Source: Alphaproteobacteria bacterium | GTDB taxonomy: Bacteria; Pseudomonadota; Alphaproteobacteria; VGEJ01 | Reading direction: 5' to 3' | Assembly: GCA_965219135.1 (NCBI GenBank) | Contig: CBDCMV010000003.1 | Span: forward strand, 423,856-487,855 | Length of the DNA stretch: 64,000 nt | In this document: positions 1 through 47,831 of the stretch, one piece after another | Layout: each line of letters starts with the position of its first letter | Numbering within the stretch: position 1 is the stretch's first letter | Program-made: the position numbers and the translations under genes | The notes under the pieces: model-generated | Databases searched by the model: none | Told to the model about the DNA's origin: nothing | The model's input: the letters and a program-made list of their open reading frames with translations, nothing else

Positions 1-1560
1 CCCGGTGGCCTTGGCGGTAAACGTGAGCGTGCCGTCAGCGCGACGCGCGGCGGCACCGTTGGCGCGGTCCTCCTTTCCGCCCTCGAAACCCCAGGGCGGG
101 TTCTTGGTGCGCTCAACGGCGATCGTTACCTCTGAATCCTCAAGCACGTGGAAGAACATGTCCATCCCCAGTCCGCCGCGATGCTCGCCCGGACTGCAGG
201 AATCCACCGCCAGCTCGACCCTTTCGAGAAGCCACGGGTTGCGAGCCTCCCACACCTCGATCGGCGAGAAGCGGGTCGCGGATTCGCAGATGTGCATCAT
301 GGTGCCGCCGTCGCCTCGGCTGTGTCCGCCCTGGCCCACCGGATGAGGCGATCCATCGGCCCACGCCTCGCCCGTCTTCTCGCGCACGCCCCACCACAGG
401 AGCGCGCAAATGTCGCCCCCCGACCACGCCGGTACCGCCTCGGGCATCGCCTTGGCGATGGCGTCGTAGATCACGTCCATCGCCTGCATCGAGGGCCAGC
501 CGTAAAGGAAGCACGGTGCCGGCGGCGTGGGATGGAACAGCGAGCCCTTGCGGGTGATCACCTTGAGCGGTCGGAACTGGCCCTCGTTCGGCGCCTCGGA
601 GTCCCCGGCGAGCACGCTGAGTGCGATGCGGGTGGCCGAAACGGTCTCGGGTAGCGGACAGTTGACCGGCCCGGCCAGCATGTCGGGGCAGCCCGAATAA
701 TCGACCCGCACCGTCGAGCCGTCGATCTCGACCACGACCTCGAAGGGGATCGGTTCGTCGTCCAGCCCGTCGTTGTCCATCTCGCCGTGGCCGACGTAGC
801 GGCCGTCGGGAAGGTTAGCGAAATAATTGCGGACGATCGCCTCGCCGTGATCGAACATGCGCTCGACCGATTTACCGAACTCGGCCAGCCCGAAACGCTC
901 GACGACATCAATAAGCGATGCCGCGCCGGCGCGCACGCCGGTTACCTGAGCGTTCATGTCGCCGGCCACCATCCGCGGCAGGCGCGAATTGGCGAGTACC
1001 GTGCGGTAGAGGTCCTCGTCGCGCTCGCCGCGACGGTAGAGCTTGATGCCGGGAAAGGTCGTCCCCTCTTGAAAGACATCCACGGTGTCCGTCGAATAGG
1101 GCGCCTTGCCGCCGATATCGAGCCAGTGACCCTTGATGGCGGCATAGCCGACAAGCTCGGTGCCGCCGAGGAACGCCGGCGTCACCATCGCCACGTCCTG
1201 CTGGTGCGAACCGGTGCCGTAGGGCCAGTTGTAGAGGATGACGTCGCCCGGCTCGAGCGCGTTCTCACCGCCGGAGGCCTCGACCGCCGCCTCGATGCAA
1301 AAACTCAGCGTGCCCATGAAGTGGGGCAGGCTGGGGGCTTGCGCAAGCAGCCTAAGATCGCGATCGTAGAGCGCGACCGCGAAGTCCAGCACCTCATAAA
1401 TGATCGGCGAAAACGCCGTGCGCACAAGCGCCCGCTTCATCTGGTTGGCCGCCGAATCGAGCGAGTGGCGAACGATCTCGGTCGTGACCGGATCCGCATC
1501 GGCGGTACCCGAGGTGCCACCGATGCCGGCCCTCGTGATGACGATCTCTGGCTCGCTCAT
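1..1560 (-). CDS. hydantoinase B/oxoprolinase family protein (3' end lies outside the window)
   Basis: Own translation of the minus strand. ATG at 1560-1558 (MSEPEIVITRAGIGG...) and the frame stays open to base 1, which is why it is absent from the ORF track. Contains blocks LEPGDVILYNWPYGTGSH, VDVFQEGT, AQVTGVRAGA, SPHPVGQGGH and EHRGGLG, typical of HyuB-type proteins. Clear paralog of the C-terminal part of ORF 13915..17319. Confidence 0.85.
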   Translation of the reverse strand, partial: MSEPEIVITRAGIGGTSGTADADPVTTEIVRHSLDSAANQMKRALVRTAFSPIIYEVLDFAVALYDRDLRLLAQAPSLPHFMGTLSFCIEAAVEASGGENALEPGDVILYNWPYGTGSHQQDVAMVTPAFLGGTELVGYAAIKGHWLDIGGKAPYSTDTVDVFQEGTTFPGIKLYRRGERDEDLYRTVLANSRLPRMVAGDMNAQVTGVRAGAASLIDVVERFGLAEFGKSVERMFDHGEAIVRNYFANLPDGRYVGHGEMDNDGLDDEPIPFEVVVEIDGSTVRVDYSGCPDMLAGPVNCPLPETVSATRIALSVLAGDSEAPNEGQFRPLKVITRKGSLFHPTPPAPCFLYGWPSMQAMDVIYDAIAKAMPEAVPAWSGGDICALLWWGVREKTGEAWADGSPHPVGQGGHSRGDGGTMMHICESATRFSPIEVWEARNPWLLERVELAVDSCSPGEHRGGLGMDMFFHVLEDSEVTIAVERTKNPPWGFEGGKEDRANGAAARRADGTLTFTAKATG

Positions 1561-3216: not shown

Positions 3217-3304
3217 TCGAAAAGAGATTTTTTCTCATGAGTTCCTCCCTTTAACCTGTGGGGATCATTGCATCACGGGGAAGAAAGTCAACTTGGTTAT
3301 GGCC

Positions 3305-5427: not shown

Positions 5428-7155
5428 ATGGCGGGTGAGCACGGCACATCCGTTCACGCGTACGTACCCGAACTCGTCGACCAGTTGCGCCGCGGCGTAA
5501 TCTCCCGGCGCCAGTTCATGCGGACCGCCAGCCTGCTCGGCGTCACCGCCGCAACCGCGGCGATGCTTGGCGGCTGCGGCGAGGGCGAAGAAGAGGAGGC
5601 CGAGGCGCCCGCGCCCGAGCCGGAGGCCGCCGCTGAACCCGAGGCGCCCAAGGGGCCCAATATTGGCGGCACCCTCAGGGTGTCGATGCGGGTGCACGAT
5701 CTTGCGGACCCGGCGACGTACGTTTCGCCCGAGCAGGGGAATATCGCCCGCCACATGGTCGAGCCTTTGGTGCGGTTGAACAAAGACAACATCGCCGAGC
5801 CCTACCTCGCCGAGCGCTGGGAGGTGTCCGAAGACCTCAAGACCTGGACCCTGCACCTGCGCAAGGATGCCAAGTGGTCGAACTTCGACCAGGAAGTATT
5901 CAATGCCGATGACGTCGTCTTCAACTTCAAACGCTGGCTGGATCCCGCCCGGGGCTCGTCGAACGCGGTCCGTTTCGCCGCGCTGAACGCAAGCGGGGTC
6001 GAGAAGGTGGATGACTTCACCGTTCGCCTTCATCTCGACCGACCCGATCTGAGCGTGCCCGAGAGCTTGGCCGAGTACCCGGCCCTCATCCTTCACCGCA
6101 AGTTCGACGAGGAAGGCGGTGATTTGCCGGCCAACCCGATCGGCACCGGCCCATACAAGATCAGAGAGTATCGGCAGGGCGAGCACACCCTTTTGGAGCG
6201 GACGCGTGATCCGGCGTTCGGTTTCAAGGCCGAGTGGTGGGGCGGCGGCGGCTACCTCGACCGAATTCGATACTTCGATCATGGCGCCGATCCGGCCGCC
6301 TCGGTCGGCGCCTTGGTGGCGGACGAAGTCGATTTCAGCCACCACGTGGACGCGGCTCAAGCCGCGGTCGCGGCGGAATCGCCCGAGCTCGCGCTCTACG
6401 AGGCGGCCTCGGCGCACACCGGCGTCATGCGCATGAAGGTGACCGAGGCGCCCTTCGACCAGGCGGCGGTGCGCCGGGCGGTGCAGGCGTGCGTGGATCG
6501 CGACGCGCTGGTGATGGCGGTGAACGGCGGGTTCGGCGCCGCGGGCGAGGACCACCACGTGGCGCCCGTCCATCCCGACTACGCGCCACTTCCGAAACTC
6601 GCCCAAGACCACGAGCGCACACGGGCCCAGTTGGCCGAAGCGGGCCATGCCGGCGGCTTGGCGATCAGTATCGACTGCGCTGCCGAGCCGGTCTGGCACC
6701 AGGCGGCCTGCAACGCGCTGGCGGAGATGTGCGAACCCGCGGGCATCACCCTAACCGTCAATGTCGTCCCGCCCGATAGCTACGCCGAGCGGTGGCTGAC
6801 GACGCCGTTCGGGCTGACGGCGTGGGACCACCGCGGGCTTGGCATCCAAGTGCTAACCCACGCCTATCGCACCGGCGCGCCATGGAACGAGTCCTCGTAC
6901 GCCAACGAGGCATTCGATTCGCTATTGGACGAGGCTGGCGCGATCCTCGACCCCGTGGCGCGGCGCGGGGCGATGGAGAAGGTCGAAAAGACCCTCCAAG
7001 GCGACGCCGTGATGGTGCAGGCGCCGTGGCGGCCGGCGTTGTCCGCGGCCAACAAGCGGGTTCAGGACCTCTACGCCCACGCCGCGTCCGAGCAACACTT
7101 CAACTTTGTCTGGTTGACCGAATCGGTGCGCGGCAGACCCACCGCGGACACCTAG
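5428..7155 (+). CDS. ABC transporter substrate-binding protein, family 5, Tat-type signal
   Basis: In-frame ATG at 5428 (MAGEHG..). Twin-arginine-like SRRQFMRTASLLGVTAATAAMLGGC, then a family-5 SBP body. Confidence 0.85.
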   Translation: MAGEHGTSVHAYVPELVDQLRRGVISRRQFMRTASLLGVTAATAAMLGGCGEGEEEEAEAPAPEPEAAAEPEAPKGPNIGGTLRVSMRVHDLADPATYVSPEQGNIARHMVEPLVRLNKDNIAEPYLAERWEVSEDLKTWTLHLRKDAKWSNFDQEVFNADDVVFNFKRWLDPARGSSNAVRFAALNASGVEKVDDFTVRLHLDRPDLSVPESLAEYPALILHRKFDEEGGDLPANPIGTGPYKIREYRQGEHTLLERTRDPAFGFKAEWWGGGGYLDRIRYFDHGADPAASVGALVADEVDFSHHVDAAQAAVAAESPELALYEAASAHTGVMRMKVTEAPFDQAAVRRAVQACVDRDALVMAVNGGFGAAGEDHHVAPVHPDYAPLPKLAQDHERTRAQLAEAGHAGGLAISIDCAAEPVWHQAACNALAEMCEPAGITLTVNVVPPDSYAERWLTTPFGLTAWDHRGLGIQVLTHAYRTGAPWNESSYANEAFDSLLDEAGAILDPVARRGAMEKVEKTLQGDAVMVQAPWRPALSAANKRVQDLYAHAASEQHFNFVWLTESVRGRPTADT

Positions 7156-7170
7156 CCACCGGGCCGGTCG

Positions 7171-7189
7171 CGCAATTTGAATTGCGTTT
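7171..7189 (+). terminator. weak hairpin plus TTT after the SBP gene
   Basis: CGCAAT-TTGA-ATTGCG followed by TTT, 16 nt after the stop at 7155. The stem is short and AT-rich, so it could instead be an operator. Confidence 0.3.
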
Positions 7190-7239
7190 GAGTACCAGCC
7201 GAGCCACACTCGTTCAAGCTTTACCATGGGAGGAAGACA

Positions 7240-8295
7240 ATGAGAACATCATTCATCATCAGATCGGCCTGTGCCGCCCTCGGCTTCTTGGGCGTCATCG
7301 CGCTGACTCAGTCGGCTTCGGCCACCGGCGAGCTTCGCTTGGCTTTCTGGGAGGGCTATGGCGACGATGACTGGGTAGCCGAATTCGAATCGAACTTCGA
7401 TTGCAAGGCCAACGTCATCTACAACACCGACCTCGGCGACCTGTGGACCAAGATCAAGGCGACCGAAGGCAAGGACTACGACATATTCGCGCTCGATACG
7501 GGCGGGTCGCTAAAGTATTGGCAACACGGACTCACGCGGGCATGGGACTTGTCGAAGATTCCCAATACCAGCAATCAGCTGGCGGCGATGCAGGATCTCA
7601 CGCGGGTGCCCAACGCCATCCACGACGGCGAACCCTTCGGCATTCCGATGGCCTGGGGCTCCATGGGCATCATCTACGACGTCGACCAGGTGGTTCCGGC
7701 GCCGACGTCGTGGGATGCGCTTTGGGATCCGAAGTACAAAGGCAAGATTCTGGTGTCGGACTTCGACAGCGACATGATCACGATGGCGGCCCAGTCGCTC
7801 GGCATCAAGGATCCGTTCCATCTCACCGAGCCGCAACTTGCTCAGGTTAGAGAAAAGCTCGCCAAGCTGCTGTCGCACTCGAAGGCGATCTACAAGTCGG
7901 CGGAGGAGAGCCTACGGATGTGGGAGGAAGGCGACATCGTCATGATGTTCGCCAATCTCGGCGAACTGCAGGAGATCAACTTCAATGATGCCGGGCACAA
8001 CATCCGCTACATCTTCCCGGAAGAGAACGACACCTTCGCGTGGCTCGATGTGTTCTCGCTAACCGTCGGCGTCGAGCCGGGCAGTGAGCGTTACGAATGC
8101 GCCCATCATTGGGTCAATTTCTTCTTGCAGAAAAGGATCAGCGAGCAGATGACCGAGCGTTACGGCTATGGCAGCACCGTCAGTGCCGCGGCGTCGTATC
8201 GTCCGACCGATCGCGTGATCTGGAAGACCGATGTCGAGTCCGACCAGGGTCGTACCGACATGTGGAACGAGCTTAAGGCCTCAGCCAGCCAGTAA
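7240..8295 (+). CDS. spermidine/putrescine-type (PotD/PotF-like) ABC substrate-binding protein
   Basis: SD GGGAGGAAG upstream of the ATG, a signal peptide, and a PotD-like body. Paralog of 43178..44215. Confidence 0.85.
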   Translation: MRTSFIIRSACAALGFLGVIALTQSASATGELRLAFWEGYGDDDWVAEFESNFDCKANVIYNTDLGDLWTKIKATEGKDYDIFALDTGGSLKYWQHGLTRAWDLSKIPNTSNQLAAMQDLTRVPNAIHDGEPFGIPMAWGSMGIIYDVDQVVPAPTSWDALWDPKYKGKILVSDFDSDMITMAAQSLGIKDPFHLTEPQLAQVREKLAKLLSHSKAIYKSAEESLRMWEEGDIVMMFANLGELQEINFNDAGHNIRYIFPEENDTFAWLDVFSLTVGVEPGSERYECAHHWVNFFLQKRISEQMTERYGYGSTVSAAASYRPTDRVIWKTDVESDQGRTDMWNELKASASQ

Positions 8296-8561
8296 GCAGC
8301 TGGCAGTGGAACTGCGGCGGCCCCGTCACTTCGGTGGAACGTTCATCGCCTGCCGGGTGACGGGGACGACGCGGCGACGCGCCGGTTGGCAGGGCGATTA
8401 GTACGCGTACCGAGGCCCGTGGCGGCCTAGACAGCTTCGGCGGCAACAGGGCTCGCGGTCGTTTCGGCGCACCTGCCGGCATCGAGACCGCCGCTCGCCT
8501 GCGGCGTGGGGCGTGGGAGTTCTTCAACTACGGGCTCCCGGTCCTCATCATTTTCGTCCCT

Positions 8562-9341
8562 GTGGCCTCATTCTTGGTCCACAGCTTCTATCACGTCAAT
8601 ATCGAAGAGTTCGAGATCATCAAGAGCCCGCTGTCGCTGGTGAATTTCGAACGGCTGATCGCCGACCAGATCTACATTCCCCTCTTTCTGAAGACCTGCT
8701 GGCTGGCGGTCCAGGTGGCGCTGGTGTGCCTGGTGATCGGCTACCCGGTCGCCTACTTTCTTGCTTCGCTCGGTGGCCGCGTCAAGTACGCCGCACTCCT
8801 GATGTTCGTGATCCCGCTCTTGATGAGTTACCTCATCAAAATCTACGCGATCCAAGGGATGCTGGGGAAAACCGGTTTCCTCAACCACGGGCTGGTCTTC
8901 CTTGGCGTGCTGGACGAGCCGACCGACCTCCTTCTGTTCAACCTCACCGCCGTCAAGGTTGCGCTCGCCATTGCGATCCTGCCGTTTACCATCCTGCCCA
9001 TCTTCGTGTCGCTCGAGAAGATCCCGCCGGCGCTTCTCGAGGCATCGGCGGACCTCGGCGCGCGCTCGTGGCCGACCTTCCGCCGCATCATCGTCCCGAT
9101 GAGCCTGCCGGGCACGGTGGTCGGCGTCTCGTTCACCTTCGTGCTCGCGGTCGGCGACTTCATCGCGCCGCAGCTGGTCGGCGGCGTAAGTGGCTTCACC
9201 TATGGCCGCGCCGTCTACAGCCAGTTCGGCATGGCGTTCAACTGGCCTTTTGGTGCGACGCTGGCCGTCCTCCTACTCGTGGTGGTGTTGGGCGCGATGG
9301 TGCTGGCGGGTCGGCTCGGCCGGCCCAAGGGAGAAACCTGA
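8562..9341 (+). CDS. ABC transporter permease (PotB-like); true N-terminus unresolved
   Basis: 259-aa ORF with the EAA-type loop LEASADLGARSWPTFRRIIVPMS. The frame is open and looks coding upstream to 8361 but has no in-frame ATG/GTG/TTG there. Confidence 0.8.
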   Translation: MASFLVHSFYHVNIEEFEIIKSPLSLVNFERLIADQIYIPLFLKTCWLAVQVALVCLVIGYPVAYFLASLGGRVKYAALLMFVIPLLMSYLIKIYAIQGMLGKTGFLNHGLVFLGVLDEPTDLLLFNLTAVKVALAIAILPFTILPIFVSLEKIPPALLEASADLGARSWPTFRRIIVPMSLPGTVVGVSFTFVLAVGDFIAPQLVGGVSGFTYGRAVYSQFGMAFNWPFGATLAVLLLVVVLGAMVLAGRLGRPKGET

Positions 9342-10135
9342 TGGTCGGCAACGTGTACATGCGCTCGGTGCTCGGCGTCGTCGCCGCGATTACGCTTGCG
9401 ATCCTCTACGGGCCGCTGATCGTGATGGCGTTCTTCTCGTTCTTCACGAAAAAGGCCGGAGTCGTCCAGTGGGACAGTTTCACCTTCGATTGGTATGTCA
9501 AACTCGCCGGCAACAGCGATATTCTCGGCACCCTGGTCAATAGCCTGATGGTCGGTTTCGCATCGGTCTTTTGCGCGCTGGTGGTCGGGACGGTGTTCGC
9601 GATTCATTTCAACGGCTCACGAAGCCGCTTCCGCAACGTTTCCCAGATCCTGATATTTCTGCCCTTTCTGCTGCCGCCCATCATCACCGGATTGTCGCTG
9701 CTCATATTCTTCTTCGAGCTCGGCGTTCCGCGATCGTTGATTACGGTCGCTTTCGGCCACACCATCTTCGTTCTCGCGCTTTGCTACCGCGTCATCCTGT
9801 CGCGCTTGCAGGCGCTCAGCCGAAATATCCTCGAAGCATCCTATGACCTTGGCGCCAACCGCCGGCAGACGTTCTTCTATGTGCTGATGCCCAATATCCT
9901 GACAGCGATGGTGACGGCGGCGGTGCTCGCCTTCGCGCTCTCGTTTGACGAGACGCTGATTTCGCTGTTCCTGTTCGGCCAGGAGATGACGCTTCCGGTC
10001 CGCCTGTGGACGATGATGGTGCGACTCGGCATTACCCCTGAAGTGAACGCCCTGGTTACGCTGATCCTCGTGGTCTCGGCGGCTTTGTTTCTTGCCGTCG
10101 CGCGTCTGCTGCGCCAGGAGGTCGAGCGGGCGTAG
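9341..10135 (+). CDS. ABC transporter permease (PotC-like)
   Basis: ATG at 9341 overlaps the upstream TGA. Contains LEASYDLGANRRQTFFYVLMPN and several hydrophobic (probable transmembrane) stretches. Confidence 0.85.
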   Translation: MVGNVYMRSVLGVVAAITLAILYGPLIVMAFFSFFTKKAGVVQWDSFTFDWYVKLAGNSDILGTLVNSLMVGFASVFCALVVGTVFAIHFNGSRSRFRNVSQILIFLPFLLPPIITGLSLLIFFFELGVPRSLITVAFGHTIFVLALCYRVILSRLQALSRNILEASYDLGANRRQTFFYVLMPNILTAMVTAAVLAFALSFDETLISLFLFGQEMTLPVRLWTMMVRLGITPEVNALVTLILVVSAALFLAVARLLRQEVERA

Positions 10136-10143
10136 GAGACCCC

Positions 10144-11055
10144 ATGGCCCCGTCGGCCACAACCGGACCTGAGCCGCGAAACGTCGGCGCAATATCGCGC
10201 GTGCTGACCGCCATGGCGATGTTCGCGGCCGGCGATGCCACGCTAAAAGAGCTGGTGGCGACCTACGCGGTCGGCCAGGTGCTGTTCCTTTCCGGACTCA
10301 TCTCGCTCGCGGTCCTGGTGCCGATCATGTGGCGGGCAGGCGAGCTCGGCGAGATTCGCACCAAGCGGCCGATCGGCAATCTCCTGCGCGTCGCCGCCGG
10401 CCTCGTTGGCCAGATCCTGTTGGCGCTTGCGCTCAAACGCCTTCCCCTCGCCGACACGACGGCGATCATGTTCTCGGTCCCGCTCTTCGTCACCGCGTTC
10501 TCGGCACCACTGCTGGGTGAGCGCGTCGGATGGCGGCGCTGGAGCGCAGTGATCGTTGGTTTCGGAGGGGTGCTGCTGATCACGCGCCCGGGCATCGGCG
10601 CGCTCGATCCGGCGATGGTGCTCGCCATCGGCGCCTCGCTCGGGTTCGCGCTCATGATCACCGCGACCCGCTGGCTCAGCCGCACCGAGCGCAGCCTGCC
10701 GCTTTTGCTTTACATGATCACCGGCTATACCGTGTACGGCGCGGTGCTGACGCCGTTTCAATGGGTCACGCCGGCGGCTGCCGATTTCGCCTTGTTCGCC
10801 GCGCTCGGCGTATTCTACACGCTCGGTTACTACATGGAGGTCCGGGCCCTGAGCCTTGCCCCGGTGGGGGTGATCACGCCTTTCATGTATACGGCGCTGC
10901 TGTGGGCGGTGCTGTTCGGATGGTTGATCTGGGGCGAGTTGCCGGCAGCCAACGTTTGGGCCGGCGCCGCGCTCATGGTCGCGAGCGGCCTATACATCCT
11001 CTATCGCGAGATCAAAGCGCACACCGCGGCTGTGAGTGGGCCCGTCCGGCTCTAG
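10144..11055 (+). CDS. DMT (EamA-like) family transporter
   Basis: 303-aa hydrophobic ORF with a duplicated EamA-like architecture. Confidence 0.8.
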   Translation: MAPSATTGPEPRNVGAISRVLTAMAMFAAGDATLKELVATYAVGQVLFLSGLISLAVLVPIMWRAGELGEIRTKRPIGNLLRVAAGLVGQILLALALKRLPLADTTAIMFSVPLFVTAFSAPLLGERVGWRRWSAVIVGFGGVLLITRPGIGALDPAMVLAIGASLGFALMITATRWLSRTERSLPLLLYMITGYTVYGAVLTPFQWVTPAAADFALFAALGVFYTLGYYMEVRALSLAPVGVITPFMYTALLWAVLFGWLIWGELPAANVWAGAALMVASGLYILYREIKAHTAAVSGPVRL

Positions 11056-11076
11056 CGCGACCGCACTCGCGCAGCC

Positions 11077-11175
11077 CTAACCGTACTCCGGTGCGGTGTC
11101 GAAGTAGCGGACGCCGACGGCATAAGCGGCGTCCAGCGCCTCGCGCGCGGTGCTCGAGGGCTGGCGGCACGGTGC
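11077..11175 (-). pseudogene. aldo/keto reductase N-terminal remnant
   Basis: Own translation: ..PSSTAREALDAAYAVGVRYFDTAPEYG* (stop 11079-11077). This is the AKR signature ..A.d.G...FDTA..YG with nothing before or after it. It is wedged between the PhyH stop (11176) and the DMT stop (11055). Confidence 0.45.
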
Positions 11176-11630
11176 TCACCGAGCGCCGACGTAGCGGCCG
11201 TTCTTGAGGATCGGATCGGCGAACCAGCGCACCGCCGATCCGTCCTCGGTGTAGAGCGGCTCGGCGACGTACTGGCTGATGAAGGCGCGGCGCATGGCGC
11301 TCGAGCGATTCGGGCCCGAGCGGTGAAACATGGTGCTGGAGAACACCGCCACCCCGCCCGCGGGTAAGCGTACCGGTATTCCCGGATCGTCACCGAAGTA
11401 TCCAACTTTGTCGTTGAGTCCGGGCCGGATCACGTGCTCGACGCGCTCGCGCGTCCCGGCGCGCGAATAGGAGAGGACGTAGATGGTGCCGTTTTCCTCG
11501 CTCGCCGCGTCGATCGCGCACCAGACAGTCAGGTACGGCCGGTGCGAGTACGACACGTAGCCCGAATCTTGGTGCCAAGAGAAGGCACCGCCGCGTTCGG
11601 GGTATTTGATCACGAACTGGTTGTTGTGGA
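11176..11630 (-). pseudogene. phytanoyl-CoA dioxygenase (PhyH) family gene, 3' part, separated from its 5' part by a group II intron
   Basis: ORF 11176..11613 (..KYPERGGAFSWHQDSGYV..FHRSGPN..). The frame continues upstream to 11630 (..HNNQFV..). Confidence 0.8.
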
Positions 11631-13557
11631 GTGCGCCAGGCTAACTGGTGCCAGTGCAGCCGGTGAAAGTCCGGCGGGAAGGAGAAGGCTAGCCACCACT
11701 TCCACCCCGAGTCATGGGCCGTTATCCGCGAGGATGGGGGTCAAGCGTTGACAGGGGCGCGTGCGGGCAGGGCTATTGAGCACCGAAAGAGACTCATCCG
11801 GGATGCCGAGGCTTTTCCATAGGCCGAAGGTAGCATCTGGTCCACCGATATGGCGACTGGGGGGTCAGAATCCCGCGGTGTCTAAGAACCCATGCACGTA
11901 CGTACGCACTGCACCGGGACCTGGGAGGTCTCCATGCCATCCCGCTGTCGTGGCGGGGTCGCAGAGGAAAGGAGGAATCCGTAACCGATGATGCACGGCA
12001 TGGAGAAGTCAGACTCGGGAATAGTAGCTGTGAAGTCGGCGAACAAAGGGATGAGAGTCCCGGCGGAGTCGATGGAGCGAAGGACCGAGCCCAAGGGGAT
12101 TCTGGAAGGCCAAAGCACGCGCCGGACACAGGACCGGGAAAGCGTGACACAGGCGGCTGACCGGATACGGCAATTTGTACAACGGGAGCCACGGGAGCGT
12201 CTGACGACGCTTCTCCACCATGTCACGGTCGAAGCGCTGCGCTGGGCGTTCTTCGCGTTGAAGAAGGACGCGGCGGCAGGTGCGGATGGCATGACGTGGG
12301 GAATGTACGAGGGAAGGTTGGAAGGCCGGTTGGCCGACCTGCACGACCGCGTGCACTCGGGAGCGTACCGGGCGACGCCATCACGGCGGGTGAATATTCC
12401 GAAACCGGATGGCGGCACACGACCGCTCGGCGTCGCGGCCATAGAGGACAAGATAGTCCAGAAGGCTGTGGCGGAGATAATCCTGACGCCGATTTACGAG
12501 GCGGAGTTCCTGGGGTCCAGCTATGGGTTCCGGCCCGGGCGTGGGGCGCATGATGCGCTCGACGCGCTCGCGGCTGGGATCAAACGGCGCAAGATCAACT
12601 GGGTGGTGGACTGTGACATCCGTGCATTCTTCGACAACGTGTCGAGGAACTGGCTGGTCCGGTTTCTCGAACACCGCATCGCGGACAAGCGGGTTATCAG
12701 GCTCATCATCAAGTGGTTGAACGCTGGCGTCATGGAAGATGGAGAGTGGCGGGACAACCTGCGGGGAACGCCGCAGGCTCGGTGGCTTCACCGGTCTTGG
12801 CGAACATCTACCTGCACTATGTCCTCGACTTGTGGTTCCAGAAGAAGTGGCGCAGCCACGAGGTCGAAGGCGACGCAATCATCGTGCGGTACGCCGATGA
12901 TTTCGTGGTGGGTTTTCAGCACAAGCGGGACGCGGAGCGCTTCCTGAACGCCGTAAAGGAACGGTTCGAAAGCTTCGAACTGGACATACACCCCGACAAG
13001 ACCCGGCTCATCGAGTTCGGGCGGTTTGCCCTGAAAGACCGTCGGCAACGAGGGCAGGGCAGACCGGAGACCTTCGACTTTCTGGGCTTCACGCACTACT
13101 GCGCGAAAGACAGACGAGGGAGATTCCAGTTGGGGCGCAAACCGGTCGCGAGGCGCATGAGCCGGACACTGAAGCGGATTAAGGAGGCGCTACGCAGGCG
13201 GATGCACTGCAAGTCCAAGGAGACGGCAAGATGGCTGGGGAAGGTGCTCGACGGATGGCTCAACTACTACGCAGTCCCGAACAGCTACCGATACCTCGAC
13301 CGTTTTACTATCCGCCTGAAGCGACTGTGGTTGCGCACGCTACGCCTACGGTCGCAGAAGGACCGCACGACATGGGCCGATATCACGGCACTGACCAAGA
13401 CCCATTGGCCCAAGCTGGAAATCCGACACCCGTGGCCGGACCAACGATTTGCCGTCAGCGCTATGCGGGGCGGAACCCAAGGGAGGAGCCGGATGCCCTA
13501 GCGGGCCTGTCCGGATCTGTGCGGGGGGCGCTGGGCAACCAGCGACCCTACCGCGAT
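11631..13557 (+). mobile_element. bacterial group II intron (En-less RT/maturase type), plus-strand orientation
   Basis: 5' GTGCGCC at 11631. RT/maturase ORF in domain IV. Domain V-like hairpin at 13486..13517 (GAGCCGGAUGCCC-UAGC-GGGC-CU-GUCCGGAUC). Domain VI at 13518..13557 with a bulged A at 13550, 8 nt from the 3' end ..CGAU. Confidence 0.9.
11988..13501 (+). pseudogene. group II intron reverse transcriptase/maturase, split by a 1-nt frameshift
   Basis: ORFs 11988..12947 and 12713..13501. RT blocks RRVNIPKPDGGTRPLGV, YGFRPGRGAHDA and DIRAFFDNV, then ..LRGTPQ|GSVASPVLANIYL.., YADDFVV, and the maturase block LDGWLNYYAV. The frame changes at 12774-12778. Confidence 0.88.
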
Positions 13558-13822
13558 AGTACGCGCTCGCGCCCAACGTTGCGGCGCAGACCTCGGCCAT
13601 CTCGCGGCTCATGATCACGTCGCGGACGGCGGCCTGGCGCTCGTGCAAATTCTGAAGAAAATAACGGTCGTACTTGTGGCTGATGGTGTTGGCTTGGAAG
13701 GTGGACCCGTCGGCGGCCTTCCGGGTGACGATCTGATCGTCGACGAAGTGCGCGGCGCCCTCGCTGGATACCACCTCCGAGCCGTTGAACTCTTCGATCA
13801 GGGCGTCGCAGGCCGCCCCCAA
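13558..13822 (-). pseudogene. PhyH family gene, 5' part
   Basis: ORF 13346..13822 codes sensibly only down to ..AEVCAATLGASAY at 13559; below that it reads intron antisense. Confidence 0.75.
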
Positions 13823-13971
13823 CGCACCGACCTGGGTCCGCGACGGAGAATATCGAAGGCCCCCGAGCCGGACAAGCCTGGCGCCCCGTCGTTCCGCGGC
13901 GTGGTTGCTGCACCTTGAAATGGCACGTAAGCTTCCCCCGTGATGTCCGGATCCACCGCGGATTCCGCGAG

Positions 13972-16900
13972 ATGAAGTGCGCCGGCTGCGGTTGCACCGT
14001 GGCGGAGGATTTCAGCTTTTGCCCCAAGTGTGGCGAGAGCCTGTCGGCCGATTGCCCGGGCTGCGGCTTCACCTGTCCGCCGGAGTTCGCGTTTTGCCCG
14101 AAATACGGCACCTCGCTTGCGGCCGAGCCATCGCCGTCGCCGGCGCGCTCGCCACCGGCTTTCGCCGGTCGATCCGAGCCCACGACGCCCACGGGGGCGG
14201 ATCTGGCTGCCGCCGAATCCGACCGCCGTCCGGTCACCGTCTTGTTTGCCGACCTGTGCGGGTTTACGGCGCTGAGCGAGCGCCTCGATCCGGAAGACAT
14301 CCGGGCCCTTCAGAACGATTTGTTCGCCGAATTGACGGCCGCGGTGACCGACGTCGATGGGTTTGTCGAGAAGTACGTCGGCGACGCGTTGCTGGCGCTG
14401 TTCGGCGCCCCGGTGGCGCATGAAGACGACCCCGAGCGGGCGCTACGCGCGGCGCTGTCGATGTGCCGGCGCACCGCCGACCTCAGCAGCCATTGGCAAG
14501 ACCGCATCCGCGAGCCGCTGGCCCTTCACATCGGGGTCAACACGGGCCCCGTCGTGGCCGGTACCGTCGGTGCGGGCGCGGCCAACGCTTACTCGGTGAC
14601 CGGGGACACCGTGAACACGGCGGCGCGCCTGCAGTCTGCGGCGGCACCGGGTCAGATCCTGGTCGGCCCGGTCACCCATCGCCTGACCCGGAGCGTGTTC
14701 CAGTTCGAGGCGATGGGCGATCTCAGGCTCAAGGGCAAGGTCGAGGCCCTGTCCGCGCACCAGTTGCTGGGCGAGCTGGCGGGGGCCGGCCCCGCCCGCG
14801 GTCTCGAATCGCTGGGATTTACCGCACCGCTAATCGCCCGCACGGATGAGCTCGGCCGGATGGTGGCGGCGGCCGAGCACATGCGCGGCGGACAGGCCCA
14901 GGTGCTGCGCTTGGTGGGCGAGGCCGGCATCGGCAAGTCGCGGTTGATCGAGGCGTTTCTCGACTCACTCGCCGGGTCCGCCGCCGAGGGTACGATCGAC
15001 GTTCGCCGCGCCGGGTGTTCGGCGCTCGGCCACGAAACATACGGTCTGTTGGCCCATCTCCTTCGCGATGCCTATGGGCTTCGCGCCGACGCCGTGCCTG
15101 GCGAGGTCGAAGAAAAGCTCACCTCGGGGCTTGCGGCGGACGGCGCCGGTGCGGACGAGATTGCCCGCACGCTGCCGCCGCTCGCGTTCGTGCTCGGCAA
15201 CGACGCCGGCGCCGGTGGCCTCGAGCATCTTCAGCCTGAACAGCTGAGGCGCCAGATTCTCCACTCCGTACGCACCCTGGCCGAACGGCGGCTCGCGGAG
15301 CGCGGGCTAGCGCTGGTGGTGGAAGACCTGCAGTGGGCGGATGCCGCGTCGATCGAGGTCCTGCGATTTCTGGCCGATCGCCTGCACGACAAATCATTCA
15401 TGCTGGTCTTGACGCACCGCCCCGAATTCGACGCGGGGCCGCTGGCTGGCGGACACGCGACTCAAACCGCGATGCGACTTGCGCCGCTGTCGAAGGCGGA
15501 GAGTGATCAGATGGTGGCGGCCCTGTTGGGCGGTTCCGAGGATGGCCCTCCCGCCGCCGTGCGCGAGCGAATCATCGGTCGCGGCGGCGGCAGCCAACTC
15601 GTGCAGAGCGCGGCGGTCTTGGGTCCGACGTTCGAGGCGCGCCTCCTGCGCAGCGTCGCCCGCGCGCCGCAGGCCGTCGAGCAGGAGCTTGAGCTTCTGT
15701 GCGAGGCCGATATCGTCGAGGAAGTTGCGATGGAGACCGGTGCCGATCAGTGCTACCGCTTCACGCAGACGCTGGTACAGGAAGTCGTTTATCAGAATCT
15801 TCTGGTGCAGAGCCGTTCGGAGCAACATGGCGCGGCTGGCCGCGCCCTCCAGGCGATGCACGGTGGTGCGGTCCGTGGCCAGGGCAGCGAAGACGCTCTC
15901 GAGCCCGGCGATGTACTCCTCTACAACGTCCCCTACGGCGCCGGTTCGCATGCGCAGGACGCGGCGTTGGTTATGCCGGTGTTCTACGACGGCGAACTCA
16001 TCGGTTACTCGGCGATCAAGGCGCACTGGCTCGACATCGGCGCCAAGGATCCGTACTGCACCGATACCGTGGATGTTTTCCAGGAGGGGACCGTCTATCC
16101 CGGGATCAAGCTCTATAGCCGCGGCCAGCCGGTCGCCGATATCCACCGCGCCGTGCTCGCCAACTCACGGCTCCCGAAAACCCTTGCTGGCGACCTCAGC
16201 GCCCAGGTCACCGGCGTCCGCGCTGGCGCCGAAGGGCTAGTGCGCGTCGTCGAGCGGTTCGGCCTTGCGGCGTTCCGGCGCTCGGTCGCGCGCATGTACG
16301 ATCATGGCGAGGCCGTGGTGCGGCGCTACTTCGAGCGCATTCCCGACGGCCGCTACACCGCACGCGGCCAGCTCGATAGCGATGGCCTTGGCGATACGCC
16401 GATCCCCTTCGAGCTGGCCGTCGATGTGGAGGGTTCGACCGTCCGCATCGATTATTTCGACGCGCCCGACGCCGTGGCGGGGCCGATGAACTGCCCGCTC
16501 CCCCGCACGGTCTCGGCCAGCCGAATTGCGATCAGCATGCTTGCTGGCGGCTCCGAGGCACCGACCGAGGGGCACTTTCGGCCCATCGAAGTCCTCACGC
16601 GGCGCGGTTCGCTGTTCCACGCGATCTCGCCGATGCCGTGCTTCCTTTGCGGTCGCATCGCCATGCAGGCGATCGACGTGATCTATCAGGCGCTCGCGGC
16701 GGTCATGCCCGCGGCGGTGCCGGCATGGAGCGCATCCGACCTCTGCTCGCTGGTGTGGTGGGGCGCGCGCGAGGGATCGGGCGAGGTGTGGGCGGATGGC
16801 TCGCCGCACCCCGTGGGCCAAGGCGCTCACATCGCGGGAGACGGCGGCACGCTCATGCACATCGGCCAATCCGCCACCCGCATCTCCCCGGTCGAGGTGT

Positions 16901-17319
16901 GGGAGGCCAAGAACCCGTGGCTGCTCGAACGTGCCGAGCTCGCGCCGGATTCGTGTGGCGCGGGCACGCACCGGGGTGGTCTCGGCATCGATTATCATTT
17001 CCACATGCTCGAGGGCGCGTACCTGTCCGCGGCGCTCGAACGAACCAAGGTACCGGCATGGGGACTGGGCGGCGGCAGCGAGGGCCGCGCCAACGGGCTC
17101 CTCGTGCGCGCGCCGGACGGCACGCGAACGCCGCTTCGCGGCAAATCGACCCGCTATCGCCTGGCCAAGGGGACGACGCTCGAGCTCTGCTGCGGTGGCG
17201 GCGGCGGGTACGGTCCCCCGGCGGCGCGACCGCGCCACGCCGTCGAGGCCGATCTCCGTGACGGCTATATCACCGAGGACCACATCCGCCGCCACTATGG
17301 CGAAGCGCTGGCGGCCTGA
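13972..17319 (+). CDS. chimeric ORF: double zinc ribbon + class III adenylate/guanylate cyclase + P-loop NTPase, fused in frame to a 5'-truncated hydantoinase B/oxoprolinase
   Basis: ORF 13915..17319; probable ATG at 13972 (MKCAGCGC..). Contains RRPVTVLFADLCGFT..GDTVNTAARL, GEAGIGKSRL and LVVEDLQWAD. From about 15870 it switches to LEPGDVLLYNVPYGAGSH..AQVTGVRAGA..SPHPVGQGAH..THRGGLG. Confidence 0.8.
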   Translation: MKCAGCGCTVAEDFSFCPKCGESLSADCPGCGFTCPPEFAFCPKYGTSLAAEPSPSPARSPPAFAGRSEPTTPTGADLAAAESDRRPVTVLFADLCGFTALSERLDPEDIRALQNDLFAELTAAVTDVDGFVEKYVGDALLALFGAPVAHEDDPERALRAALSMCRRTADLSSHWQDRIREPLALHIGVNTGPVVAGTVGAGAANAYSVTGDTVNTAARLQSAAAPGQILVGPVTHRLTRSVFQFEAMGDLRLKGKVEALSAHQLLGELAGAGPARGLESLGFTAPLIARTDELGRMVAAAEHMRGGQAQVLRLVGEAGIGKSRLIEAFLDSLAGSAAEGTIDVRRAGCSALGHETYGLLAHLLRDAYGLRADAVPGEVEEKLTSGLAADGAGADEIARTLPPLAFVLGNDAGAGGLEHLQPEQLRRQILHSVRTLAERRLAERGLALVVEDLQWADAASIEVLRFLADRLHDKSFMLVLTHRPEFDAGPLAGGHATQTAMRLAPLSKAESDQMVAALLGGSEDGPPAAVRERIIGRGGGSQLVQSAAVLGPTFEARLLRSVARAPQAVEQELELLCEADIVEEVAMETGADQCYRFTQTLVQEVVYQNLLVQSRSEQHGAAGRALQAMHGGAVRGQGSEDALEPGDVLLYNVPYGAGSHAQDAALVMPVFYDGELIGYSAIKAHWLDIGAKDPYCTDTVDVFQEGTVYPGIKLYSRGQPVADIHRAVLANSRLPKTLAGDLSAQVTGVRAGAEGLVRVVERFGLAAFRRSVARMYDHGEAVVRRYFERIPDGRYTARGQLDSDGLGDTPIPFELAVDVEGSTVRIDYFDAPDAVAGPMNCPLPRTVSASRIAISMLAGGSEAPTEGHFRPIEVLTRRGSLFHAISPMPCFLCGRIAMQAIDVIYQALAAVMPAAVPAWSASDLCSLVWWGAREGSGEVWADGSPHPVGQGAHIAGDGGTLMHIGQSATRISPVEVWEAKNPWLLERAELAPDSCGAGTHRGGLGIDYHFHMLEGAYLSAALERTKVPAWGLGGGSEGRANGLLVRAPDGTRTPLRGKSTRYRLAKGTTLELCCGGGGGYGPPAARPRHAVEADLRDGYITEDHIRRHYGEALAA

Positions 17320-17535
17320 GTGGGGGAGGCGGTGAACCAACAAGACGAACGCGGGCTCTACCTGGTCTTCGGGGGCAAGGTCCAAGATCTGCGCGGCCAG
17401 GATTTCATGGCCCCCGATCTTCTCGACATTCGCGGCATCTTCGGTACCTATGACGAGGCCTTCGCCGCTTGGCGGGGGGCCAGTCAGGCGGCGGTCGACG
17501 ACGCCTTCATGAAATATGTGATCATTCGACTGTAG
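17320..17535 (+). CDS. DUF4170-like small protein
   Basis: 71-aa ORF (..LYLVFGGKVQDL..IRGIFGTYDEAFAAWRGASQAAVDDAFMKYVIIRL). It matches my recollection of the alphaproteobacterial DUF4170 pattern. Confidence 0.6.
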   Translation: MGEAVNQQDERGLYLVFGGKVQDLRGQDFMAPDLLDIRGIFGTYDEAFAAWRGASQAAVDDAFMKYVIIRL

Positions 17536-17544
17536 TGACCGCTT

Positions 17545-19134
17545 GTGCGTGATTTTCATTTTCCTGGCCGTTCGACGGTGCACGCGGTCAACGGCATGGC
17601 CGCGACCTCGCACCCTTTGGCAACCCTTGCGGCGATCGAAGTCCTGCGCGAGGGCGGCAACGCGATCGACGCCGCCGTGACGGCGAGCGCGGTCTTGTGC
17701 GCGGTCGAGGCCAAGTCCACCGGCATCGGCGGCGACTGTTTCGTGCTCTACGCGCCGGGCGGGCGCGGTCCGCTTATCGGTCTCAACGGCTCGGGGCGGG
17801 CGCCGGCACGGGCGAACGCCGAGTGGTTTCACGAGCGGGGCATCACGCGCATCGAGCCGCGCTCGGTGCATGCCGTCACGGTGCCCGGCGCGATCGACGC
17901 CTGGGCGCGCATCCTTGACGACCACGGCACCATGGGCCTCGACCGCTGCCTTGTACCCGCGATCCGATACAGCGAAGAAGGCGCGCCGGTCTCGCCGCGT
18001 ACCGCCTGGGACTGGATCGATCTGGTTGACGCGCTGAAAGCGGACCTGACCGCCAAGCGCATCTTTCTGCCCCGGGGCCGGGCGCCGCGCGTCGGCGAGA
18101 TTCACCGCCAACCCGAGCTCGGCAAGGTGCTCCGGACCATCGCCCGCAAGGGCCCCCCCGGCTTTTACCGCGGCGCCGTCGCGCGCGACATCGTCGGTTA
18201 TTTACGACGGCTTGGTGGACTTCACACCCTCGAGGACTTTGCCAACCACACCTCGGACTATGTGATGCCCATCCATACCCACTATCACGGCCACAAAGTT
18301 TGCGAGATTCCGCCCAACGGCCAAGGCATCACCGCCCTCATCATGCTCAACATCCTGCGCGGATTCGATCTCGGCGGCCTTGATCCCAACGGTTACAAGC
18401 GGTTGCACCTCGAGGCAGAAGCAGGGCGGCTCGCGTACGCCGCACGCGACGCCTTCGTCGCCGATCCTGGCGCCGCCAAAGTACCCACCGCGAGACTGCT
18501 CTCGAGGCGCCACGCCGAGTCCGAGCGCGCGCGCATCCGACGCGATCGTGCCATCACCGACCTCCGCCCAGCCTCGGCGTTGCCTCTCGTCGACACGGTC
18601 TACCTGACCGTCGTTGATCGCGACAGAAACGCGGTGTCCTTCATCAACTCGACGTTCTGGTCCTTCGGATCTGGACTGGTCAGCCCCAAGACCGGCGTGG
18701 TCTTGCAGAACCGCGGAGCCGGCTTCACCCTCGAGCCCGGCCACCCGAACTGCATCGGGCCGTCCAAGCGTCCGCTCCACACCATTATTCCGGGAATGCT
18801 CATGAAGGGGGCGCGCGCGGTCATGCCCTTCGGCGTCATGGGCGGCTACTACCAGCCGGCAGGACACGCACACCTGGTCTCCAACGTGCTCGACTTCGGC
18901 ATGGACCTTCAGGAGGCGATTGACTCACCGCGCGCCCTTCATATCGAAGGGGTGCTCAACCTCGAACGCGGTATCAACGACGAAACCGCGCGCCGCCTTC
19001 GCCGCCTCGGCCACAAGGTGAAGCGGCCCAAGGCGCCATTCGGTGGCGCCCAGGCGATCTGGATCGACGCGAAGGGGGGCACGCTGATCGGCGCGTCCGA
19101 ACCACGCAAAGATGGCTGCGCGCTAGGCTATTAG
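17545..19134 (+). CDS. ggt: gamma-glutamyltransferase
   Basis: 529-aa ORF with a GTG start. Contains ..GGNAIDAAV.., ..TGIGGDCF.. and the autoprocessing-region block DTVYLTVVDRDRNAVSFINS. Confidence 0.9.
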   Translation: MRDFHFPGRSTVHAVNGMAATSHPLATLAAIEVLREGGNAIDAAVTASAVLCAVEAKSTGIGGDCFVLYAPGGRGPLIGLNGSGRAPARANAEWFHERGITRIEPRSVHAVTVPGAIDAWARILDDHGTMGLDRCLVPAIRYSEEGAPVSPRTAWDWIDLVDALKADLTAKRIFLPRGRAPRVGEIHRQPELGKVLRTIARKGPPGFYRGAVARDIVGYLRRLGGLHTLEDFANHTSDYVMPIHTHYHGHKVCEIPPNGQGITALIMLNILRGFDLGGLDPNGYKRLHLEAEAGRLAYAARDAFVADPGAAKVPTARLLSRRHAESERARIRRDRAITDLRPASALPLVDTVYLTVVDRDRNAVSFINSTFWSFGSGLVSPKTGVVLQNRGAGFTLEPGHPNCIGPSKRPLHTIIPGMLMKGARAVMPFGVMGGYYQPAGHAHLVSNVLDFGMDLQEAIDSPRALHIEGVLNLERGINDETARRLRRLGHKVKRPKAPFGGAQAIWIDAKGGTLIGASEPRKDGCALGY

Positions 19135-29921: not shown

Positions 29922-30536
29922 AGCCTTCACGAGCGGCGGCCCGCTGCCGATCGTGGCGTAGGCCAAACTTACCCCGTCACCGGCGGTGCAGAAGCGTATC
30001 TCCTGCTCGGGCGCGCCCGGGGTTCGCGGCCCGCCGGCGGCGGCGATGCCATAGAGGTGGACCGGTTGGGCGATGTTCTTGAGTTTGCGCTCGCCGAGAT
30101 CGACGAACGCGGCGGCCACCTTGCCCTCGACCTGGCGATGGGCCTCGCCCGAGATACACAATCCGCCCGGCTCGGCGGCCTCCTGCAAACGCGCGGCGAC
30201 GTTAACACCGTCGCCGAAAATATCGCCGTCCTCAACCACGACGTCGCCCAAGTTGACCCCGATTCGGAAGACGATTCTTTGGTCGTCACCTCCGGCCATC
30301 GCGTTTTGGACCGCGATGGCGCAACCGACGGCGTCGACGACGCTGGCGAACTCGGCCAGGAGCCCATCGCCCATCGTCTTAACGATGCGGCCGCGGTGCT
30401 CGGCGATCGCGGGGTCGATCACTTGGGCGCGGCACGCCTTGAGGCGCGCCAACGTCCCCGCCTCGTCGGCGCCGATGAGTCGGCTGTAGCCGACCATGTC
30501 GGCACTGAGGATTGCCGCCAACCGCCGTTCGGACAT
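29922..30536 (-). pseudogene. class III adenylate/guanylate cyclase with the start of an alpha/beta-hydrolase domain, 3'-truncated
   Basis: MSERRLAAILSADMVGYSRL..TMGDGLLAEF..FGDGVNVAARL.., then ..EIRFCTAGDGVSLAYATIGSGPPLVKA. After that the frame reads antisense response-regulator sequence. Confidence 0.75.
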
Positions 30537-30544
30537 GCCGGGTC

Positions 30545-38809: not shown

Positions 38810-38862
38810 CCCGTCCGCTATCAACTTTGCCGCGCGGACCTTTCTGCAGCGCACGCTCCTAG
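38810..38862 (-). mobile_element. 53-bp solo left-end remnant of the IS1182-family element
   Basis: Reverse complement matches 20075..20127 (CTAGGAGCGTGCGCTGCAGAAAGGTCCGCGCGGCAAAGTTGATAGCGGACGGG). Confidence 0.9.
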
Positions 38863-39090
38863 AACCTCTTCGCGGTGGCCGGCTTCGAACGGGAGGTCGC
38901 TGCGCAGCGGCAGCGCCGCCGGTTGCGCCATGACCAACTTGCCTTTCTGGTACTTTTCAACCGTATCGAACGGGTGCGCCGATCGATCGAGAACGACGTA
39001 GGAAATACCGAGTTCCTTGGCGCGGGCGCCAGCGCTCAAACCACCCGGACCCGCCCCCACGATTGCGATCGTAACGTCGGTGCTTGCCAA
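38863..39090 (-). pseudogene. N-terminal FAD/NAD(P)-binding fragment of the same oxidoreductase gene
   Basis: MASTDVTIAIVGAGPGGLSAGARAKELG.. continues to ..FEAGHREEVL and then enters the IS end. Confidence 0.7.
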
Positions 39091-47771: not shown

Positions 47772-47831
47772 CTGGACTTGACGGCGTTCTATGCGCCCAA
47801 CGAGGGGGACGGTCGACGCAACGCCCCTACG
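47772..47831 (+). mobile_element. 60-bp internal scrap of the IS1182-family transposase gene
   Basis: Matches the stretch starting at ~20309 of copy 1 (CTGGACTTGACGGCGTTCTATGCGCCCAACGAGGGGGACGGTCGACGCAACGCCCC..), with one C missing from the C-run. Confidence 0.85.

Follow-up and report, generated by a model that had tools for sequence, protein, structure and literature searches.

A long open reading frame in the 64,000-nucleotide stretch of alphaproteobacterial DNA analyzed here (the window) joins a nucleotidyl cyclase and P-loop NTPase to most of a hydantoinase B protein (HyuB). We conclude that this chimeric frame is very probably a young deletion scar, and that it reflects ordinary decay of the genome rather than a protein of a new kind. 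This conclusion rests on a nearly identical sister locus in which the genes are separate and from which the window differs by a clean 2149-bp gap, on the full-length hyuB genes of five relatives, and on the absence of the architecture from every other protein and genome locus that our searches returned.

The initial annotation had described a single 1134-aa frame with zinc-ribbon, cyclase, P-loop NTPase and HyuB parts, and both direct reading of the sequence and Pfam bore this out. The domains follow one another in the order double zinc ribbon (DZR, residues 22-63), class III cyclase (Guanylate_cyc, 105-277), AAA_16/STAND NTPase (306-497) and Hydantoinase_B (658-1102, E-value 7.4e-115). The domain scan that had been proposed for placing the boundary thus has Hydantoinase_B beginning at profile position 74, and the match covers only positions 74-519 of 519. 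Because homologues begin with MKC.GCG, we prefer the ATG at 13972 (MKCAGCG...) as the likely start, which gives a product of 1115 aa (P0121); exactly this protein is recorded from one 3.76-Mb contig.

Table 1. Features of the chimeric frame and its surroundings, in window coordinates.
Feature	Position	Strand	Basis
Remaining part of lineage-specific island (7006..13667 of the sister locus L001, 6.66 kb)	11069..15867		Homology break against five relatives
Second window-specific deletion, 78 bp	13836..13837		Comparison with L001
Chimeric ORF, 1134 aa from TTG 13915	13915..17319	+	ORF call, Pfam
Double zinc ribbon, three intact CxxC pairs, fourth motif CPKY	13978..14106	+	Pfam DZR
Class III nucleotidyl cyclase domain	14227..14745	+	PF00211, 5.5e-28
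AAA_16/STAND-type P-loop NTPase, Walker A and Walker B	14830..15405	+	PF13191, 1e-16
Remnant of NTPase helical/winged-helix region	15406..15867	+	Homologue comparison
Deletion joint, 2-bp GG microhomology present in both parents, inside codon GGT (Gly651), in frame	15865..15866	+	Alignment with L001
3' 84% of hyuB, residues 92-574 of a 574-aa protein	15868..17319	+	Pfam, alignments, comparison with L001
DUF4170 gene, conserved partner downstream of hyuB	17320..17535	+	L001 and relatives
Gamma-glutamyltranspeptidase (GGT) gene, conserved 3' of hyuB-DUF4170	17545..19134	+	L001 and relatives

The syntenic locus L001, on a 1.72-Mb metagenome contig, is 99.8% identical to the window over 20 kb and has three separate genes here, whose products are a cyclase-STAND-TPR protein, a peroxiredoxin of the AhpC/TSA type and a HyuB complete at 574 aa. 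Aligned with this locus, the window shows a single clean gap of exactly 2149 bp (11773..13921 of L001). An in-frame deletion joining two co-oriented genes had been predicted from the window by itself, and the gap lies at the predicted place; the two parent genes were indeed joined, but they were not neighbors, since the AhpC/TSA gene stood between them. The switch from one parent to the other had been put at about 15865-15875, and the alignment narrows that region to the joint in Table 1. A search for a pair of repeats bracketing the breakpoints found none, the identity there amounting to only 2 bp, and we therefore rejected repeat-mediated recombination and assembly collapse. Both breakpoints cut into conserved folded regions of the parent proteins, not into linkers.

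We propose that the common ancestor of the window and sister strains carried a 6.7-kb accessory island between EamA and hyuB-DUF4170-GGT, which would have held a PhyH-like gene, a group II intron, the zinc-ribbon/cyclase/STAND/TPR gene and the AhpC/TSA gene. A single illegitimate deletion of 2149 bp at the 2-bp microhomology would then, in the lineage of the window, have taken the 3' portion of that cyclase gene with all of its TPR repeats, the entire AhpC/TSA gene, a short spacer and hyuB codons 1-91. The in-frame joint would be a one-in-three chance, and translation from the ATG at 13972 would continue into hyuB codons 92-574.

What remains of the island in the window is a PhyH-like gene on the minus strand, split by a group II intron on the plus strand, and the cyclase gene on the plus strand; the AhpC/TSA gene is gone. 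Homology to five further relatives ends at the end of EamA and restarts at the start of hyuB, and these relatives have the arrangement EamA-(AKR)-hyuB-DUF4170-GGT with a full hyuB. The island has also accumulated other damage. Eight of the nine indels that distinguish the two strains lie within the island, of which 4.7 kb is aligned, as against 15.8 kb of flanking core, where the only indel is a 6-bp intergenic one; all five 1-bp indels are inside the island (chance about 6e-4). Indels private to the window strain include a 1-bp RT frameshift and the 78-bp deletion upstream of the chimeric frame, which deprives the divergent PhyH-like gene of its ATG and about 24 codons; those private to the sister strain are a 115-bp deletion and two frameshifts. 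A scan for promoters and terminators over 13400-17700 gave nothing above shuffled expectation, the sigma-70 consensus being a poor model for a GC-rich alphaproteobacterium.

The confinement of indels to this unconstrained island points to a real mutation under relaxed selection and not to a random assembly error, and we infer that the 2149-bp deletion is biological. The competing account, in which the true genome still holds the 2149 bp and the joint reflects a read path that is chimeric or rare, or a minority haplotype, draws on the fact that the junction is known from one contig only (the fused protein has no entry in the gene-position index) and on the probable origin of that contig in a metagenome assembly, which often mixes strains. 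In the JGI metagenome contigs, a 36-mer spanning the joint had 0 exact matches and the undeleted breakpoint likewise had 0, a result that favors neither allele. Given that only 2 bp of identity and no collapsible repeat lie at the breakpoints, and that both strains carry private island indels while the core flanks are nearly free of them, we consider an artefact improbable. The opposite polarity, with an ancestral fusion that was split in the sister strain by a 2149-bp insertion, is suggested by nothing more than the fact that comparing two sequences is formally symmetric. Such an insert would have to bring with it a whole AhpC/TSA gene, precisely the TPR tail that has homologues in about 114 cyclase-STAND-TPR proteins, and HyuB residues 1-91, which 13 relatives without any cyclase gene have in near-identical form; the outgroup comparison refutes this polarity, and we give it practically no chance.

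The cyclase-NTPase half still carries its central motifs. The nucleotidyl cyclase assignment held in Pfam, and the sequence itself reads FADLCGFT, GDALLALFG, a Lys and GDTVNTAARL; the metal-binding Asp residues in the first two of these, the Lys, and the Asn and Arg in the last are what we take to be the class III cyclase catalytic residues. Walker A (GEAGIGKS) and Walker B (LVVEDLQWAD) of the P-loop NTPase were confirmed as well. Four Cys pairs had been claimed for the zinc ribbon, of which three are intact; the fourth motif is CPKY, with Cys64 changed to Tyr (codon 14104-14106) in a column that is Cys in 114 of 114 homologues. A 55-aa segment (consensus PLFLEEIVR...LDRLP), kept in all 114 homologues, has been lost in frame between 15594 and 15595. 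This loss is common to the window and the sister locus and is older than the 2149-bp deletion. Altered residues occupy 20 of 194 conserved columns in this half, 3.4 times the usual number (mean 5.9), and the sister copy of the cyclase gene has two frameshifts. Together with C64Y and the 55-aa loss, these changes show that decay of the cyclase gene had set in earlier than the 2149-bp deletion. The TPR-like tail, reported as missing, is indeed absent, with no Pfam match to TPR repeats in the chimera; the sensor (about 440 aa) is present in the sister gene and lies within the deleted stretch.

The HyuB half is homologous to CapB (E-value 2e-50) and to N-methylhydantoinase (1e-75), and residues 652-1134 of the chimera are 99% identical to the full-length HyuB ortholog of the sister strain. 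The absence of the HyuB N-terminus was borne out by that 574-aa protein, which aligns with 13 relatives across the 91 residues missing from the window. His679, Asp682 and His704 of the chimera, equivalent to His99, Asp102 and His124 of CapB, are kept. The Asp-His-Asp-His metal tetrad is nevertheless incomplete, because its first Asp, HyuB Asp59 (CapB Asp41), was deleted. Mapping on CapB shows that residues 1-91 also hold the first long helix and residues of the pocket and tunnel. In CapB, the D41A substitution yields an inactive and less stable enzyme, and the interface with CapA is made by the first long helix (PMC8453981).

Two window-derived HyuB substitutions, G98S and T478S, fall at sites invariant in the 13 relatives, which is no more than suggestive. 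The HyuB part differs from the sister locus by only 5 SNPs (3 non-synonymous and 2 synonymous) and the cyclase coding part by 1; the adjoining intact genes have the same ratio of roughly 1:1, and these SNPs are too few to give a dN/dS comparison any power. The window has a second hyuB copy at 1..1560, running off its edge. The claim that the chimera aligns with this paralog from about residue 90 of the latter stood (60% identity), with the correction that the copy is on the minus strand. A tblastn match to the paralog from residue 605 of the chimera was discarded, as its first 45 columns are noise and true identity begins at residue 651, in agreement with the sister locus. No hyuA was found beside either hyuB copy, as had been stated, nor by tblastn anywhere in the 64-kb window or in nine compared loci (L001-L009); in most distant loci, hyuA lies immediately 5' of hyuB.

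We searched for the same architecture at several levels. No protein matched both halves among the top 120 word-index matches or among the best 150 representatives inspected from an exhaustive search of 1.84 billion, in which the best score was 582 bits, whereas a true homologue of the fusion should exceed 1000. A search of 185,579 species genomes gave 78 species-representative genome loci, none of which covers both halves, and in the chimera's own 90% cluster of 18 members the other 17 are all ordinary, unfused HyuB. The search for the fusion versus separate orthologs that the initial annotation had suggested therefore found the fusion in none of these other proteins and loci and the separate genes in the sister locus.

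The more exciting proposal in that annotation was a new architecture, a STAND-like NTPase with an amidohydrolase-like domain in place of its C-terminal sensor module. As a working protein this would be a STAND-type cyclase in which a HyuB-derived ligand-sensing or oligomerizing domain stands in for the TPR sensor. The frame does run for 1134 codons with no stop, Walker A and B are intact, as are the catalytic residues of the cyclase and three of the four HyuB metal ligands, and the fused frame lies directly upstream of DUF4170-GGT. Against the proposal stand the searches above, which returned no second protein or genome and no two-half homologue, the 99.8%-identical sister strain that keeps the genes apart, breakpoints that cut folded regions of both parents, the loss of the metal ligand and partner helix, and a cyclase that was already decaying, to which G98S and T478S may be added; we regard it as unsupported and very unlikely. 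A more specific version, in which the chimera would be transcribed from the cyclase promoter, would be stable, and would dimerize in CapB fashion through its 480 HyuB-derived residues so as to pair two cyclase domains, is likewise very unlikely. If it were true, the product would be a newborn cyclase, constitutively active or responsive to a metabolite, and the locus a case of gene birth by deletion within 0.2% divergence of its unfused ancestor.

The deletion-scar interpretation implies instead that any product made would most likely have no function. The HyuB part of it would lack one of four essential metal ligands, the A-subunit docking helix and a nearby A subunit, and its cyclase-NTPase part would lack the sensor repeats, part of the winged-helix region and one zinc ligand. 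Since the cyclase catalytic residues and Walker motifs are intact, the chimera could at most retain an unregulated basal cyclase activity. For a deletion specific to one strain of an uncultured alphaproteobacterium, in an accessory island, the general import is small. From its hyuB-DUF4170-GGT cluster the strain has lost the hyuB that is conserved elsewhere, together with an AhpC/TSA peroxiredoxin. The locus also offers a clean before-and-after pair, at nucleotide level, for a microhomology deletion that yields an in-frame chimera, and it calls for caution in annotation, because the 1115-aa product has entered protein catalogues through automatic pipelines and surveys of domain architecture could count a "cyclase-STAND-hydantoinase" architecture.

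Zinc-ribbon/cyclase/AAA_16/TPR proteins of about 1090 aa, with a MalT-like STAND NTPase, are widespread in Rhizobiales (Sinorhizobium, Mesorhizobium, Bradyrhizobium), NC10 and Rokubacteria. Residues 1-651 of the chimera resemble them at 45-57% identity, with the same domain order and the same catalytic and Walker motifs, but the chimera lacks their TPR sensor and 55-aa NPLFLEE/winged-helix segment and has Tyr in place of the eighth zinc-ribbon Cys. A literature search on this family found no relevant work. Mycobacterial cyclase-ATPase-HTH proteins such as Rv0386 have a related plan. Like hydantoinase B, oxoprolinase B and caprolactamase beta (PF02538; PDB 6YRA chain B; 7HK5), the chimera keeps the His-Asp-His of the metal site; unlike them, it has neither residues 1-91, with Asp59 and the A-subunit helix, nor an A subunit gene nearby. 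Natural HyuA-HyuB single chains (the 1288-aa N-methylhydantoinase 7HK5; P0149, P0161) likewise place Hydantoinase_B at the C-terminus of a long fusion, but there the partner is the ATP-hydrolyzing HyuA, to which HyuB is coupled in function, and HyuB is complete, whereas here the partner is an unrelated signaling protein and HyuB is truncated.

The chimera also resembles chimeric ORFs and pseudogenes made by deletion, with breakpoints within two ORFs, very short microhomology, loss of the intervening genes, restriction to one strain and a decaying region around them. Spontaneous deletions between co-oriented neighbors make such chimeric ORFs and pseudogenes, RD-type deletions in mycobacteria being an example, and Mira, Ochman and Moran reportedly described a deletional bias in bacterial genomes in 2001. 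The present chimera differs from these in nothing essential; it is notable only for its in-frame joint and for the survival of the states before and after the deletion at 99.8% identity.

Comparison of the window with L001, a sister locus in which the parent genes are still separate, demonstrated to the nucleotide the simpler reading of the initial annotation, a deletion fusing two genes in frame. The best database match of the chimeric ORF, P0001, is encoded at L001 on a 1.72-Mb ENA metagenome contig; it is identical to ORF residues 102-651 and then continues into TPR repeats. Window positions 4064-24669 are collinear with L001 at 99.8% identity. L001 carries, in order, the cyclase-STAND-TPR gene, an AhpC/TSA peroxiredoxin gene (219 aa), a full hydantoinase B gene, hyuB (574 aa), DUF4170, and gamma-glutamyltranspeptidase (GGT), so that the parents were not adjacent but had the AhpC/TSA gene between them. 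L001 11773..13921 (2149 bp) is missing from the window, and the joint places hyuB sequence from residue 92 (AVRGQG...) directly after ...AMHGG of the cyclase gene. At the breakpoints GG is all that the parent sequences have in common, and no repeat pair was found around them. A single microhomology-mediated (illegitimate) deletion made the ORF, taking the TPR sensor, AhpC/TSA, and the 5' end of hyuB; this accounts for the TPR-like tail, present in L001, and the HyuB N-terminus (91 residues) that had been reported absent. With a prior of one in three, an in-frame joint calls for no particular explanation.

Coordinates of features in the window
Feature	Position	Strand	Remarks
Chimeric ORF	13915..17319	+	1134 codons
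Deletion joint	15865/15866		within codon GGT, Gly651
Group II intron	~11600-13560; Rfam match 11666-11890	+	directly upstream of chimeric ORF
RT ORFs of group II intron	11988..12947 and 12713..13501	+	
PhyH-like dioxygenase gene halves	~11176-11613 and 13346-13822	-	apparently split by antisense group II intron
IS with DDE_Tnp_1/DUF772 transposase	~20156-21514	+	
Second hyuB	1-1560	-	60% identical paralog
SBP_bac_5 solute-binding gene	1663-3234	-	adjoins second hyuB

The ORF has the extent first described, and the HMM scan returned the expected domain order. Pfam placed the double zinc ribbon (DZR) at residues 22-63, the class III cyclase domain at 105-277 (E 5.5e-28), the AAA_16 NTPase at 306-497 (E 1e-16), and Hydantoinase_B at 658-1102 (E 7.4e-115), the last matching only profile positions 74-519 of 519. 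NCBIfam assigned the C-terminal part to caprolactamase beta, concordant with Pfam, and the N-terminal part to a partial TOMM kinase/cyclase. Translation likely starts at ATG 13972 (MKCAGCG...), judging by homologous sequences.

In five more distant relatives (L002, L003/4/5, L006, and L084; HyuB ~91% identical), full hyuB, DUF4170, and GGT come after EamA, with or without an intervening aldo-keto reductase gene, and none of these loci has the cyclase, AhpC, PhyH, or intron. Because DNA homology between L001 and these relatives ends with the end of EamA and restarts at the start of hyuB, L001 7006..13667 constitutes a lineage-specific island of 6.66 kb. Within it lie a minus-strand PhyH-like gene that appears to be interrupted by the antisense group II intron (Pfam PhyH matches the C-terminal half only, at profile positions 98-213), the cyclase gene, and AhpC/TSA. 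In L002 and L006 an aldo-keto reductase gene fills the gap between EamA and hyuB; at the left edge of the island, an 85-bp remnant (L001 7009-7092; counterparts L002 7608-7692 and L006 5385-5469) matches the 5' part of this gene at 90% identity, which suggests that the island replaced it.

Could the joint be an artefact, physically unreal in the organism? The exact 1115-aa protein, read from ATG 13972, is recorded once, on a 3.76-Mb contig in NCBI and ENA, and JGI scans matched neither the deleted nor the undeleted allele. Of the indels between the window and L001, however, 8 of 9 fall within the 4.7 kb of aligned island, versus a single 6-bp intergenic indel in 15.8 kb of flanks; all five 1-bp indels are in the island (chance under random placement ~6e-4), and SNP density is alike within it and outside. 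Besides the 2149-bp deletion, the window side has a 78-bp deletion at 13836/13837 that takes out the PhyH-like start codon and ~24 codons. It has also lost 1 bp at 12775, which puts the intron RT out of frame; in L001 the frame is intact there. On the L001 side, 115 bp at the RT N-terminus (window 12000-12114) are deleted, and a 1-bp deletion cuts the cyclase domain off from the zinc ribbon; the L001 cyclase gene has a further frameshift near the TPR C-terminus, within the stretch missing from the window. Both intron copies are damaged, each differently. The pattern reads as the signature of real mutations building up in unconstrained DNA, and we infer that the deletion is biological; an artefact is unlikely.

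A second copy of the IS lies at the window end (62972-64000, 99.6%), with terminal fragments of it as short matches at 38810-38863 and 47772-47831, and the relatives' loci are crowded with IS1595, IS21, Mutator-type, and IS5-like elements. These copies and loci suggest an IS-rich, actively rearranging lineage.

The initial annotation had also entertained a new protein architecture, which the database searches did not support. In a word-indexed search of 5.8 billion clusters, the matches listed each covered no more than 48-59% of the query, and all belonged to a ~1090-aa zinc-ribbon/cyclase/AAA_16/TPR family. P0122, a HyuB cluster representative that matches 43% of the query at 99% identity, was absent from the matches listed, although its expected score was far over the listing threshold. 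The cluster with the window's own protein may have been masked in this search, and was covered by exact-sequence look-up. An exhaustive HMMER search of 1.84 billion representatives (top score 582 bits) confined each best stretch to one half, and phmmer of both halves against all 270 retrieved proteins found no protein matching both; the long HyuB matches were HyuA-HyuB fusions. Among 78 loci from species-representative genomes, not one covered both halves, and in the ORF's own 90% cluster (n = 18) the window protein alone is fused.

Nor is it at all probable that the chimera has gained a function. Basal cyclase activity may be possible, since the cyclase catalytic residues and Walker motifs are kept. 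Against 114 full-length homologues, the ORF lacks a 55-aa segment (PLFLEEIVR...LDRLP) found in 114/114, and the eighth zinc-ribbon Cys, invariant in homologues, is Tyr; of the four Cys pairs first reported, the fourth reads CPKY, not CPKC. At columns conserved in at least 90% (n = 194) the ORF deviates at 20, whereas the homologues average 5.9 (sd 4.1). The cyclase gene was degenerating before the 2149-bp deletion, because L001 has the same 55-aa loss and C-to-Y change. At 0.2% divergence, dN/dS of the halves had no power, and neither a promoter scan nor a literature search on the cyclase-STAND-TPR family gave anything useful. Elsewhere in the window, a class III cyclase-like coding region (~30027-30551, minus strand) is 28% identical to the ORF cyclase domain (tblastn E 6e-8). 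The ORF is a deletion scar of an ordinary kind, and a very recent one, within a decaying accessory island; its product is probably inactive and would be no more than an unregulated cyclase. This hyuB is effectively lost from the strain, with the paralog remaining at the window start, and the cyclase gene's transcription signals now lie upstream of DUF4170-GGT.

The paralog was present where first described, on what proved to be the minus strand. As had been noted for the window, no HyuA homologue was detectable there or in L001-L009; in most of the distant loci hyuA lies immediately 5' of hyuB. The second hyuB and SBP_bac_5 form a pair without hyuA that also occurs in the relative L084, and one of the clade's orphan hyuB genes always has DUF4170 and GGT downstream. 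There seem to be several "orphan" HyuB genes near peptide/solute transporters in this alphaproteobacterial clade, and these settings hint at an uncharacterised gamma-glutamyl or lactam-related role.

In caprolactamase CapB all four metal ligands are essential, since changing any of them to Ala abolishes activity and lowers thermostability, and CapB meets ATP-hydrolysing CapA through the first long helix of its N-terminal Greek-key domain (PMC8453981). The 91 missing HyuB residues are nearly invariant in 13 relatives and align without gaps to CapB (6YRA_B), with HyuB Asp59, within this stretch, corresponding to CapB Asp41; ORF His679, Asp682, and His704 correspond to CapB His99, Asp102, and His124. 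Unlike CapB, the HyuB half of the ORF has three of these ligands without the Asp41 equivalent, and is without the first 91 HyuB residues.
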